5,197 nucleotides of DNA, taken from IMG/VR virus record IMGVR_UViG_2671180433_000002; one strand, 5' to 3'. The DNA comes from a virus (taxonomy: Duplodnaviria > Heunggongvirae > Uroviricota > Caudoviricetes). Shown piece by piece: positions 2,312 through 5,197 of this stretch (its first letter is position 1; the number at the start of each line of letters is the position of its first letter). A model generated the notes under the pieces. That model saw only the letters and a program-made list of their open reading frames with translations. It ran no database searches and was not told the DNA's origin. A program made the position numbers and the translations under genes.

Positions 2312-2738
2312 TATCCGGCAGGTTCTTGAGCGCTGGGGGGCATGGGCGGTAAATAACTATGAGGATGTTACATGGTCGCCCATTGCTGCCGGATTTAAGG
2401 GACTGATCCCCGAAAAAGTAAAATCACGTCCACAGTGCTGTGACGATGATGCGATGGTGATATGCGGGTGCATAGCCCGCCTTTACCGGAACAATCGCGA
2501 TCTGCATGACTTGCTGGTTGATTACTACGTGTTGGGGGAGACGTTCATGGCGCTGGCACGGAAACATGGGTGCTCTGACACCTGTATAGGTAAACGCCTT
2601 CACAAAGCGGAGGGGATTGTTGAAGGCATGCTGATGATGCTGGGAGTGAGGCTTGAGATGGATCGGTATGTTGAGCGTGAATTGCCGGGAGGGAGAAGCT
2701 CTGTATTTTATCAGCGAAAAAATAGTTTACGATCGTAA
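2304..2738 (+). CDS. Q: Late-gene antiterminator Q, Q82/QuuD-type
   Basis: From ATG 2304: [34 protein letters not shown]...[20 protein letters not shown]...[11 protein letters not shown] matches the N-terminus and Cys-rich zinc motif of QuuD-family Q proteins as I recall them. The start overlaps the ninH stop. The upstream in-frame extension from 2205 overlaps ninH and is not supported. Confidence 0.85.
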
Positions 2739-2753
2739 AAATCTGCATATCAT
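2726..2753 (+). promoter_or_regulatory. Candidate late promoter pR' (-35 TTTACG 2726-2731, -10 TATCAT 2748-2753, 16 bp spacer), overlapping the 3' end of Q
   Basis: Hexamers read directly from the sequence, in the position expected for pR' immediately after Q in lambdoid phages. The match to consensus is modest and the spacer short. Confidence 0.3.
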
Positions 2754-2784
2754 GATAAGAGTGGTTACATTGCCACGCAGCCGA

Positions 2785-2808
2785 ACCCGCCGATGCGCGG
2801 GTTTTTTT
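2785..2808 (+). terminator. Rho-independent terminator, candidate tR' (target of Q antitermination)
   Basis: Stem ACCCGC (2785-2790) pairs with GCGGGT (2797-2802) around loop CGATGC, followed by a seven-T run (2802-2808), about 50 bp after the candidate pR'. Confidence 0.7.
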
Positions 2809-2988
2809 GTACCCAGAATCCTGTGAGCTATACGGAAAGTACACAGAAAGGAAGGTACGACCGCAATTAATAACAAAATCTTAAAAATCTCATATGGCAC
2901 TATTAGTTTTCTAAATATTGTATATTTTAAGTATTGCAGGATAACCCTGTAACGAAGTTTGCGTAACAGCATTTTGCTCTACGAGTTT

Positions 2989-3018
2989 GCCAGCCTCCCC
3001 TGGTGGCTGGCTTTTTTT
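2989..3018 (+). terminator. Rho-independent terminator
   Basis: Stem GCCAGCC (2989-2995) pairs with GGCTGGC (3005-3011) around a 9 nt loop, followed by seven Ts (3012-3018). Confidence 0.65.
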
Positions 3019-3252
3019 GTATCCGTTCAACGGGAATGTTACATACCTCACAATTAAGTCAGTTGAATGTTGTCTGCCCGGATGAGAATTTGTTAGAAAA
3101 AACTGCATGGTGAATCCCCCTGAGCGGAGGGGCGACTGGTGACGGTATAATCTCTGATTATCAAAACGAGAATGACGCGGGTTTAGTGGCACCGGGCTGA
3201 ACTCACCGGGAGGCACCCGGCACCATGCAATGGCACATAGCGCCACTCTCCA

Positions 3253-3278
3253 GCCCCTCTCCGGAGGGGCTTTCTTAT
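3253..3278 (+). terminator. Terminator-like hairpin with interrupted T tract
   Basis: Stem GCCCCTC (3253-3259) pairs with GAGGGGC (3264-3270) around tetraloop TCCG, followed by TTTCTTAT (3271-3278). Confidence 0.5.
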
Positions 3279-3282
3279 GGAC

Positions 3283-3310
3283 AAAAAAGCCCGCGCTGGG
3301 AGACGCGGGC
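3283..3310 (-). terminator. Minus-strand rho-independent terminator, convergent with the 3253-3278 hairpin
   Basis: Stem GCCCGCG (3289-3295) pairs with CGCGGGC (3304-3310) around an 8 nt loop. It is preceded on the + strand by AAAAAA (3283-3288), which is a U-run after the hairpin for a minus-strand transcript. There is no T-run after it on the + strand. Confidence 0.5.
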
Positions 3311-3503
3311 GGCAAGGAATGAACAATGAAACGTGAAGTAATATTTCAGCTGGCGAATAATACCCCATAGTAATCACTCTGCGCAACTGCGCGACCTTTT
3401 TCGAATTGCGGGCTGTAGTCTCCCTTCTGCCATTGTCCTGTAACTTCCGGACTTCAGCCCGCTCCTTATTTTACTCACAATATTATCCCGGCCGGGAGGA
3501 TTC

Positions 3504-5065
3504 ATGGCATTTAAACACTATGATGTTGTCAGGGCGGCGTCGCCGTCAGACCTTGCGAAACGAATAACTCAAAAACTGAAGGAAGGGTGGCAGCCTTATG
3601 GTAGTGCGCTGATTTCGACAGCTGGTTATGGTGCGGAGTTCATCCAGCCAGTTGTGAGTGAGGGGAGCATCTCATCACCAGAGGAGCCAGGCAACCGTCC
3701 GACGACCTCAGCGCCTTCTGTTGCGCCAGAATATTACTATGTGATCGCGCTTGCTGGTCAGTCCAATGGTATGTCATACGGTGAGGGACTGCCATTACCG
3801 GATACATTCGACAGCCCTGATCCACGTATTAAACAGTTAGCGCGTCGCAGTACGGTGACACCGGGCGGTGCAGCATGCAAATATAACGACATCATTCCGG
3901 CGGACCATTGTCTGCATGATGTGCAGGACATGAGCCGTCTTAACCATCCGAAAGCGGACCTGTCAAAGGGGCAGTACGGAACCGTGGGGCAGGGGCTGCA
4001 TATCGCCAAAAAACTGCTGCCGTTTATACCGGCGAATGCGGGCATTCTGCTGGTTCCGTGCTGTCGTGGTGGTTCAGCGTTCACCACCGGAGCTGATGGC
4101 ACATACAGTGACGCGAGTGGCGCCTCGGAGAATTCAACCCGCTGGGGTGTGGACAAGCCGCTGTATAAGGACCTTATCGGTCGAACAAAAGCGGCACTGG
4201 AGAAGAACCCGAAAAATGTGCTGTTTGCCGTGGTGTGGATGCAGGGGGAATTTGATTTTGGCGGTACGCCGGCAAATCATGCCGCACAGTTTGGTGCGCT
4301 GGTTGATAAATTCCGTGCAGACCTGGCGGATATGGCAGGCCAGTGCGTCGGTGGCTCTGCTGGCGGTGTTCCCTGGATATGCGGGGACACGACGTATTTC
4401 TGGAAGCAGAAGAACGAATCCACGTACCAGACGGTGTACGGCAGCTATAAAAATAAAACGGAAAAGAATATCCATTTCGTACCGTTCATGACCGATGAGA
4501 ACGGGGTGAATGTGCCGACGAACAAACCGGAAGAAGACCCGGACATTCCGGGTATCGGTTATTACGGTTCGAAATGGCGTGACAGCTCAGCCACCTGGAC
4601 GTCACAGGACAGGGCGAGCCATTTCAGTTCATGGGCTCGCCGTGGGATTATTTCCGACCGTCTGGCAACGGCGATTCTGAGCTGCGCGGGTAAGTCTTCT
4701 GCGTTTGTTAATGGTACTGCCGGGGTGGTTGTTCCAGACAGACCGGTTACCACCTCAGAGTCTGTAATTTTTTACGATGCCAAAAAAGCTACAGACAATC
4801 AGCTGAAACCCTATGGCTGGGACGGTGTGTATGGCAGGCGCACACTGGTTGATGACAGCGGCAATAAAGCTCTGCGAATTGAGAAAAATAACAGCGCGAA
4901 ATCCTGGTCAATGTACTGTGATATTGCTGCAGACAAGGCAAAACTTTTACTGGAAAAAGGCGGGGAAATTGCTGTCCGGTTTAAAATCCCCGAAAACGTC
5001 AATCTTGAGACAACCAGAAACAAGTATGCCTTTGGTTTGTACTGGCGAATAGCGGAATGGCCGGG
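3504..5065 (+). pseudogene. nanS-p: NanS-p-like prophage sialate (9-O-acetyl-Neu5Ac) O-acetylesterase, 3'-truncated by IS629 insertion (ORF runs to 5114 using IS-derived codons)
   Basis: N-terminal DUF1737-like segment (MAFKHYDVVRAASPSDLAKRITQKLKEGWQPYG), then an SGNH/SASA esterase block with the catalytic-serine motif (YYVIALAGQSNGMSYGEG). GGGAGGA Shine-Dalgarno at 3494-3500. The IS629 terminal repeat begins at 5066, so the last 16 codons ([15 protein letters not shown], stop at 5112-5114) are read from IS sequence. I recall full-length NanS-p proteins as roughly 600-650 aa, so about 100+ C-terminal residues are missing. Confidence 0.75.
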
Positions 5066-5197
5066 TGAACCGCCCCGGGAATCCTGGAGACTAAACTTCC
5101 TGAGAAAGAGGTAAACAGGATGACTAAAAATACTCGTTTTTCCCCTGAAGTCCGTCAACGGGCAGTCCGTATGGTTCTGGAAAGTCAGGGCGAATAT
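5066..5197 (+). mobile_element. IS629-like (IS3 family) insertion sequence, terminal fragment; left inverted repeat starts at 5066 and the element continues beyond the window end
   Basis: TGAACCGCCCCGGGAATCCTGGAGACTAAACTTCC starts at 5066. Bases 5066-5197 are the exact reverse complement of 1-132. The OrfA start ATG lies at 5120. Confidence 0.8.
5120..5197 (+). CDS. IS629-like transposase OrfA, 5' portion only (26 codons; continues past window edge)
   Basis: ATG at 5120 preceded by GAGG/AGGA; translation MTKNTRFSPEVRQRAVRMVLESQGEY. Confidence 0.75.
   Translation, partial: MTKNTRFSPEVRQRAVRMVLESQGEY

Follow-up and report, generated by a model that had tools for sequence, protein, structure and literature searches.

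A predicted STnc100-family small RNA with a conserved 5' domain and a hypervariable tail in the late region of a lambdoid prophage

Genomic context of the locus

The DNA analysed here, referred to as the window, is a 5,197 nt stretch of a Caudoviricetes record (IMG/VR IMGVR_UViG_2671180433_000002). Its upstream genes encode an antirepressor, YbcO, RusA, NinH and the antiterminator Q (PF06530; ending at 2738), and a DUF1737–SASA sialate esterase gene follows from position 3504. In E. coli O104:H4 and further strains, prophages carry this intergenic region with 100 % identity and without any annotation in it; at the matching O104:H4 locus, genes for holin and lysozyme lie downstream. We assigned the following features to this region.

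3070–3075, plus strand: -35-like hexamer TTGTCT, 18 nt upstream of the -10-like hexamer; putative function suggested by the layout
3091–3099, plus strand: extended -10-like element TGT-TAGAAA (TAGAAA at 3094–3099), the proposed sRNA promoter, based on positional conservation
3105–3278, plus strand: predicted STnc100-family sRNA of ~174 nt, based on Rfam, nhmmer, PasD2 homology, the -10-like element and the terminator
3105–3112, plus strand: 5' arm of helix H1, GCAUGGUG, pairing with 3221–3228 (minimum free energy (MFE) fold, covariation, RNAalifold)
3115–3135, plus strand: hairpin HP1, CCCCU/AGGGG core with loop GAGCGG, within the near-invariant core GGUGAAUCCCCCUnnGCGGnGGGGC (MFE fold, RNAalifold)
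3137–3163, plus strand: hairpin HP2, weak, G-U-rich and variable, with TATAAT in its apical loop (MFE fold only)
3179–3204, plus strand: hairpin HP3, GGGUUUAGU / GCUGAACUC, with the first GGCACC in its loop (Rfam, MFE fold)
3206–3220, plus strand: hairpin HP4, CCGGG-AGGCA-CCCGG, within the invariant core CACCGGGAGGCACCCGG and containing the second GGCACC (alignment, RNAalifold)
3221–3228, plus strand: 3' arm of H1, CACCAUGC, overlapping the third GGCACC (covariation, RNAalifold)
3229–3252, plus strand: variable tail AAUGGCACAUAGCGCCACUCUCCA, putative seed and Hfq-contacted region (hypervariability, homologue data)
3253–3278, plus strand: intrinsic terminator GCCCCUC-UCCG-GAGGGGC followed by UUUCUUAU (sequence, terminator scan, fold)
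3281–3475, minus strand: candidate convergent partner sRNA, EcOnc08/21/42-like, with an approximate 5' end (homology)
3310–3289 with T-run 3288–3283, minus strand: terminator of the partner (terminator scan)
3510–3482, minus strand: promoter-like ATGCCA-17-GATAAT of the partner (sequence comparison)

The same setting recurred across 206 viral loci carrying homologues. Same-strand neighbours upstream encoded RusA, three types of Q, a NinG-like protein or a methylase, whilst those downstream encoded the esterase, holin, endolysin and Rz; the esterase was downstream in 80 loci and Q-type antiterminators were upstream in 47–55. No gene specific to the RNA or acting as its dedicated partner was found among the 206 loci, only standard late-region genes. 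Tandem arrays of up to five STnc100 units were also present, with a -10-like promoter and a terminator in each unit.

The plus-strand gene and its candidate partner end in back-to-back terminators (3253–3278 on the plus strand and 3310–3283 on the minus strand), the arrangement of the EcOnc05/EcOnc08-type dyad. The partner was ~93 % identical (estimated from alignment A3) to E2348C_1409.E2348C_1408.IGR, a 182 nt sRNA candidate from EPEC Hfq RIL-seq and a homologue of EcOnc08/21/42, and the probe site of Sakai EcOnc08 was homologous to window positions 3357–3391. The conserved ~42 nt 3' region of AsxR/AgvB (RF02703/RF02702) gave no match in 3260–3420 at E-values up to 10, Rfam Esr41 did not match the minus-strand partner, and the alignment of the partner to the AsxR region of Sakai Sp5 diverged over the 3' ~100 nt. 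Hfq-crosslinked 'convergent sRNA' pairs have been described in eight Sakai prophages, where they occupy the moron site that separates PR' from the lysis genes (PMC4104026).

Assignment to the STnc100 family

An Rfam scan of the window returned a single strong match, to STnc100 (RF02076), at 3077–3282 on the plus strand (165.1 bits, E-value 2.4e-38, against a gathering score of 47), covering the full length of the model (positions 1–206 of 206). A family profile built with nhmmer aligned to 3105–3279. A sequence-only reading of the window had flagged positions 3146–3278 as a candidate sRNA; the Rfam match holds this whole stretch and ~70 nt upstream of it, so that the TATAAT box proposed in that reading as the promoter falls within the RNA model. 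What that reading flagged corresponds to the 3' two-thirds of a catalogued prophage sRNA of the STnc100, or EcOnc05/EcOnc27/PasD, group. The element is therefore already known as a catalogued STnc100 member, and its nearest relative has been detected experimentally.

The window copy has the closing helix around hairpins with the cores GGUGAAUCCCCCU..GCGG.GGGGC and CACCGGGAGGCACCCGG, and its setting is a lambdoid prophage late region, in which Q and the lysis genes have the same orientation as the RNA. Helices, invariant cores and late-region context are those of STnc100 in Rfam; relative to the consensus HP2 is longer (a 5 nt insertion in the Rfam alignment), and nothing essential differs. STnc100 is catalogued as 'Gammaproteobacterial sRNA STnc100' and was first listed for Salmonella prophages (RF02076). 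In the phage collection, 369 records had an STnc100 match, mostly Stx-converting phages, and distant copies from metagenomic phages also exceeded the Rfam threshold.

Many other prophages carry a second, degenerate STnc100 copy upstream; none was found in the window, where 3105–3279 was the sole nhmmer match with all filters off. Weak Rfam matches to Qrr, rsmX, mir-74, anti-hemB and OmrA-B fell far under their thresholds and were rejected as terminator-driven noise. Scanning bacterial genome contigs with GCATGGTGAATCCNCC gave chance matches in unrelated bacteria and nothing else.

Conserved and covarying RNA structure

Homologues were gathered from IMG/VR by three anchor patterns and an iterated nhmmer profile, and reduced to 117 representatives with less than 94 % identity. 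Covariation was counted on a MAFFT alignment (alignment A2) of 55 sequences with less than 87 % identity. The MFE fold of 3105–3279 (-71.6 kcal/mol, z = -2.9) reproduced the Rfam architecture, and unguided RNAalifold predicted H1 (7 bp), HP1 and HP4. Across the whole structure 82.9 % of cells were paired, compared with at most 50.5 % with slid partners, and none of 500 shuffles reached the observed values.

The closing helix H1 displayed the clearest covariation, with compensatory double changes at seven of its eight pairs and 90.5 % of cells paired among the 55 diverse sequences; one pair was GC in 25 sequences and AU in 24. The arms were also compared at fixed offsets, as the 8 nt before AAUCC and the 8 nt after the invariant hairpin CACCGGGAGGCACCCGG, so that no search for complementarity was involved. 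At these positions the arms covaried as GCGUGGUG/CACCACGC, GUGUGGUG/CACCACAC, AUAUGGCG/CGCCAUAU, CUGCUGUG/CACAGCAG, UUGUGAUG/CAUCACAA and CUACGGUG/CACCGUAG. Since this pairing covaries, the RNA includes 3105–3112, sequence that lies upstream of the TATAAT.

Two sequence cores of the 5' domain were invariant, even in their loops, across very diverse phages. HP4 was paired in 100 % of cells with an invariant loop among the 55 sequences, and HP1 displayed rare compensatory variants (CCCAU/AUGGG and CUUUC/GAAAG). HP3 had double changes at all nine pairs with 62 % of cells paired, in a region where the MAFFT alignment is poor, whilst HP2 was not in the centroid fold and its region varied in length and could not be aligned among homologues. 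As the alignment is unreliable at both, we make a weak claim for HP3 and none for HP2.

This architecture also accounts for the GGCACC repeats, which the sequence-only reading had taken as iterated seed or protein-binding motifs. The strings themselves were confirmed when 2900–3500 was read (TATAAT at 3146–3151; GGCACC at 3188, 3212 and 3219; TGGCAC at 3231). GGCACC occurs three times in the window against 2.65 expected, a chance-level count, yet all three copies lie within 37 nt. The first copy falls within the non-conserved HP3 loop, which reads, for example, AGGUGCUGGUACU in other lineages; the second is made up of the loop and 3' arm of invariant HP4; and the third bridges the HP4 end and the 3' arm of H1. 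The apparent repeats are thus a consequence of the structure, being a loop and helix arms of a conserved fold.

Proposed promoter and 5' end

Upstream of H1, the one element conserved between lineages was a -10-like hexamer, at constant spacing from the helix. A TAnnn[A/T] hexamer began 9–14 nt before H1 in 93 of the 117 representatives, against a background median of 18 and maximum of 46, and most representatives lacking it carried TGTTAAAAG. The gap between hexamer and H1 was 4–5 nt in most lineages. In the window this position is occupied by TAGAAA, and the layout TTGnCT-18 nt-TAAAAA/TAGAAA is common to Sakai Sp5 and Sp4 and to EPEC PasD2 (TTGACT). Both window hexamers, TTGTCT and TAGAAA, are weak matches and were absent from the list of a generic promoter scan. 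RpoD ChIP-exo signal has been reported at Salmonella STnc100 copies (PMC10794520).

PasD2 has a published start at NC_011601:741157; this base, the G of GCATGG, corresponds in the alignment to G3105 of the window. Based on this homology and the conserved -10-like hexamer, we place the probable 5' end at ~3105, and with the 3' end given by the terminator the predicted RNA is ~174 nt. The 5' boundary of the Rfam match (3077) probably corresponds to promoter DNA and not to RNA.

Terminator and hypervariable tail

The GC-rich hairpin GCCCCTC-TCCG-GAGGGGC (3253–3270) followed by TTTCTTAT (3271–3278), named in the sequence-only reading as the 3' end, was borne out by direct reading and is kept in homologues. 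Six terminator-like sites were detected in 2600–3600 against 0.9 expected, this hairpin and its T-run among them; the excess over chance and the conservation in homologues both indicate that the terminator is real. Its U-tract is interrupted (UUUCUUAU), which is suboptimal for both termination and Hfq binding.

Between the conserved 5' domain and the terminator, the tail was hypervariable. Of 115 representatives scanned, 84 had a detected terminator-like hairpin, and these carried 67 distinct tails whilst conserving the 5' domain; in the same 84 the median tail was 26 nt and the median total RNA ~170 nt. The tail AAUGGCACAUAGCGCCACUCUCCA and terminator GCCCCUCUCCGGAGGGGCUUUCUUAU of the window were identical to those of Sakai EcOnc05, and this hairpin and tail recurred together in 20 viral-contig copies as well as in Sakai Sp4. 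The PasD seed occupies the equivalent tail position (PMC8550237), and Hfq-CRAC peaks of EcOnc13 and EcOnc27, together with PasD RIL-seq chimera ends, map to the 3' 50–80 nt of those RNAs. By analogy with these relatives, the tail at 3229–3252 likely acts as a seed.

Comparison with characterized relatives

Published probe sequences place EcOnc05, EcOnc06 and EcOnc27 as STnc100-type RNAs. The closest is EcOnc05 of prophage Sp4 in E. coli O157:H7 Sakai, detected both by Hfq-CRAC and by Northern blot (PMC4104026). Its locus is 94.8 % identical to window positions 3197–3503, including the tail, terminator, U-tract and EcOnc08-type partner, and has the same promoter layout. In contrast, HP2 of EcOnc05 (AAUCAGCGAGUAGGUAUAUGGGAUAAUCGCG) is unrelated to that of the window, and the upstream neighbours in Sp4 are tRNA genes where the window has Q. 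The window HP2 instead matches that of another viral copy (L138, at position 1308), whose tail differs. Having an EcOnc05-type tail and terminator with an L138-type HP2, the window copy appears to be a mosaic of exchangeable modules.

Of the other relatives, EcOnc06, from Sakai prophage Sp17, was likewise identified by Hfq-CRAC and Northern blot (PMC4104026). EcOnc27, also named sRNA103, lies just after stx2B in Stx2 phages (PMC4104026, PMC7873438, PMC12711010, PMC12370729); it has the family, the 5' domain and the convergent-dyad position upstream of the esterase in common with the window, but its tail AGUAUACAGAGAUUAGGCAUAUACCA, its terminator and its minus-strand partner (AsxR) are unlike those of the window, which is without stx genes. 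The more distantly related PasD1 (173 nt) and PasD2 (172 nt) of EPEC E2348/69, supported by Hfq RIL-seq, Northern blot and RNA-seq (PMC8550237), share the 5' arm of H1, the HP1/HP4 layout, a similar length and the gene order Q, sRNA, SASA esterase. However, PasD scores 41 bits on the STnc100 model, under the threshold of 47, and both its HP1 (CCUCC-UU-GGAGG; CCUCCUUGGAGG) and the seed CCUUGUGAG in its tail are absent from the window; in a pairwise alignment the two RNAs resemble each other over the 5' domain alone and have unrelated tails. Shared ancestry of PasD and STnc100 has been proposed in a 2026 preprint (bioRxiv 10.64898/2026.05.13.724894). In EDL933, all 11 STnc100 copies are transcribed and one (STnc100_4) was Northern-positive (PMC5331693). 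Such Hfq-bound relatives from EHEC and EPEC are in keeping with the earlier remark that EHEC prophage late regions encode sRNAs (PMC4104026, PMC8550237).

Alternative interpretations

In the sequence-only reading, a structured plus-strand sRNA of ~110–130 nt was transcribed from TATAAT 3146–3151, with a start near 3158 and its 3' end at the same terminator. The existence of such an RNA, its late-region location and its 3' end stood, and the covariation among homologues that it called for was found; its promoter, its 5' end and the meaning given to the repeats did not hold. The hexamer is a perfect -10 sequence, and 3158–3279 (122 nt) does fold well (z = -2.95), but the conserved helix needs the 5' arm further upstream, and a transcript from ~3158 would lack half of H1 and the entire invariant HP1 core. 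One TATAAT on both strands of the window, against 1.68 expected and with at least one in 158 of 200 shuffles, is a chance-level count. The promoter scan omitted it because no acceptable -35 lies 16–18 nt upstream; AGCGGA stands 17 nt upstream, and the hexamer is not directly preceded by TG. It falls in the unalignable, length-variable region and is confined to closely related, near-identical variants such as the L138 copy. Other -10-like strings (TATGAT, GATAAT) are similarly placed in some E. coli variants, but these are close relatives and not independent lineages. We consider it very improbable that this shorter RNA is the main product or a shorter isoform. The displacement has practical consequences, as probes, deletions or fusions built on a promoter and 5' end misplaced by ~50 nt would halve the RNA. 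The opposite displacement, in which the same gene has a 5' end at or upstream of 3077 or yields a processed late-promoter read-through product of ~200–250 nt, is unlikely, though less so. The Rfam model reaches 28 nt upstream of 3105, and Northern estimates for EcOnc05 (~222 nt against ~167 predicted) and EcOnc27 (~235/247 against ~175) exceed the predicted sizes (PMC4104026), whereas EcOnc06 (~177 nt), EcOnc13 (~187 nt) and PasD (172/173 nt) fit a ~174 nt model. Against a longer RNA, only the fixed-distance hexamer is conserved upstream of GCATGG, the outer 3 bp helix of the Rfam model is non-canonical in the window, and PasD starts at the G of GCATGG by RNA-seq and Northern blot. The EcOnc13 probe, reverse-complemented, matches upstream of GCATGG in another copy; we set this aside as weak evidence for a farther-upstream 5' end because the probe has no match at its assigned Sp3 locus.

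A role in cis would also suit the constant, always co-oriented placement between Q/PR' and the lysis cassette and the spacing of 3–10 nt between terminators on opposite strands. In the lysogen, back-to-back terminators could shield the esterase and lysis genes from transcription arriving from upstream, whilst polymerase modified by Q would read through them, or the region could be an RNA processing or stability element. For a terminator, however, neither a promoter of its own nor a ~120 nt 5' domain of covarying helices and invariant cores would be needed, homologues are discrete Hfq-bound RNAs with many RIL-seq partners, and each tandem-array unit has both promoter and terminator. As a replacement for an sRNA gene this explanation is improbable; an insulator role may exist alongside one in trans, although it would leave the conserved 5' domain unexplained. 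A protein-coding origin of the conservation is less credible than any of these. ORFs are listed at 2911–3315 on the minus strand (134 aa, TTG start) and, as the mini-ORF MVNPPERRGDW, at 3107–3142 on the plus strand; some annotations place a minus-strand hypothetical protein over PasD-type copies; and ribosome-footprint ratios above 1 have been reported for some EDL933 STnc100 copies. Yet homologue indels are not multiples of three (domain lengths range over 110–146 nt), variation tracks base-pair covariation and not codon positions, the invariant cores have no third-position variation, and in further lineages the AUG becomes GUG, GCG, CUG, UAG and others with pairing kept. Coding potential was rejected on both strands on the basis of the indel and covariation pattern.

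Proposed model

We regard it as highly probable that the locus encodes a trans-acting sRNA of the STnc100 family, transcribed from its own promoter as a ~174 nt RNA (3105–3278) of three modules in a lambdoid prophage late region. Its existence as a discrete transcript of this size that binds Hfq is proposed by analogy with its homologues in the literature. The gene would form a self-contained 'moron' unit between Q and the sialate esterase gene, oriented as the late operon. In a lysogen, sigma-70 polymerase would most likely initiate at the extended -10 (TTGTCT at 3070, TGT-TAGAAA at 3091–3099), transcribe from about G3105 and stop at the intrinsic terminator (3253–3278). The first module would be the conserved 5' domain (3105–3228), in which the 8 bp closing helix surrounds four hairpins, two with invariant cores, and which may serve as a stability or protein-binding scaffold. 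The second would be the hypervariable single-stranded tail of ~24 nt (3229–3252) and the third the terminator. As in its relatives, Hfq would bind the 3' part and the tail would pair with mRNAs or sRNAs of the host or a prophage. In the lytic phase, polymerase modified by Q would continue through the sRNA gene.

In pathogenic E. coli, RNAs of the STnc100 type rank with the most abundant prophage-encoded sRNAs; they lie beside stx2, and a link to clinical outcome has been made for them. Despite this abundance, the literature holds no STnc100 member with a demonstrated function. Useful starting points for experiments are the conserved scaffold, the hypervariability of the tail and the occurrence of tandem arrays across diverse phages. 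One further idea, which we offer tentatively and think doubtful, is that the invariant 5' domain does not solely stabilise the RNA but is a docking scaffold for a specific protein, either CsrA or another factor from host or phage. STnc100 RNAs would in that case act as modular, programmable guides, each a fixed scaffold with a swappable 20–30 nt tail, which phages would diversify by module exchange and deploy in tandem arrays of up to five units. Indirect support lies in the invariance of the domain, loops included, across very diverse phages, in the 67 distinct tails and in the mosaic make-up of the window copy. Of all RNAs in CsrA-bound chimeras, PasD2 is the most abundant, and for PasE guidance of CsrA by the sRNA has been demonstrated (bioRxiv 10.64898/2026.08.12.744399). 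In the window RNA, GGA motifs are present in HP4 and in the terminator loop.

Features around the STnc100 copy

The plus-strand STnc100 copy, a member of the prophage sRNA family RF02076, lies between the antiterminator gene Q and the DUF1737-SASA esterase gene. Features identified in this region were as follows:

2726-2753, plus strand: promoter-like TTTACG-16-TATCAT, overlapping the end of Q
2783-2804, plus strand: strong terminator-like hairpin, followed by a T-run, downstream of the 2726-2753 site
2987-3020, plus strand: second terminator-like hairpin, preceded by an AT-rich stretch
3107-3142, plus strand: mini-ORF, AUG GUG AAU CCC CCU GAG CGG AGG GGC GAC UGG UGA
3281-3475, minus strand: convergent sRNA candidate
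3310-3283, minus strand: terminator of this candidate
3510-3482, minus strand: promoter-like site of this candidate
3380-3400, plus strand: terminator-like hairpin TGCGCAACTGCGCG, then ACCTTTTT

The promoter-like site at the end of Q and the first hairpin could represent PR' with tR', yielding a short, StxS-like RNA of approximately 50 nt. The second hairpin gave a weak Rfam match to Qrr (23 bits), which was judged to be noise. The mini-ORF begins 2 nt downstream of the inferred sRNA 5' end, overlaps the conserved STnc100 5' core and would encode MVNPPERRGDW. It was judged to be non-coding because other lineages retain the pairing of this segment but not the AUG.

The terminator of the minus-strand candidate stands back-to-back with that of STnc100. 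An sRNA candidate from EPEC Hfq RIL-seq (E2348C_1409.E2348C_1408.IGR, 182 nt) displayed an estimated identity of ~93 % to the minus-strand candidate (alignment A3), and the Sakai minus-strand sRNAs EcOnc08, EcOnc21 and EcOnc42 are its homologues. By Rfam, the candidate does not belong to the anti-sRNA families AsxR/AgvB. The plus-strand hairpin at 3380-3400 falls inside the region encoding this partner and is kept in EPEC and in Sakai prophages Sp4 and Sp5. This hairpin could simply correspond to the partner RNA's 5' stem-loop, seen from the opposite strand.

Tandem and diverged STnc100 copies

STnc100-family units were also found in tandem in viral contigs, with three to five units per array at a spacing of ~250 nt:

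L287, 4349-5513 and 8357-8555
L255, 342-1038
L268, 1702-2340
L126, 2265-3380

Every unit of these arrays carried its own -10-like element, and several had distinct tails and their own terminators. An isrI-family RNA was located within the L287 array, and tRNA genes were close by in L255, L126 and a further contig, L138. In L138, a strongly diverged third copy (1065-1213; ~27 bits with the nhmmer profile built from IMG/VR homologues) is located between two full STnc100 copies that are separated by 468 nt. Despite its altered sequence, this copy retains the STnc100 architecture, including the closing helix of the 5' domain (H1, UGUGAUG/CAUCACA), the enclosed hairpin HP4 (CCGG-GAAA-CCGG) and its own terminator. 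Diverged third copies of this kind were also present in L129, L148, L161, L195 and L206.

Window ends

The window ends (1-132 and 5066-5197) form a perfect 132-nt inverted repeat. Each carries only part of an outward-reading IS3-family transposase, namely its end together with its first 26 codons (MTKNTRFSPEVRQRAVRMVLESQGEY). The prophage segment is either bordered by two inverted IS copies or a contig with repeats at its ends. The esterase ORF is shortened at 5114, giving 536 aa in the window compared with 636 aa (1911-nt CDS) in O104:H4 2011C-3493.
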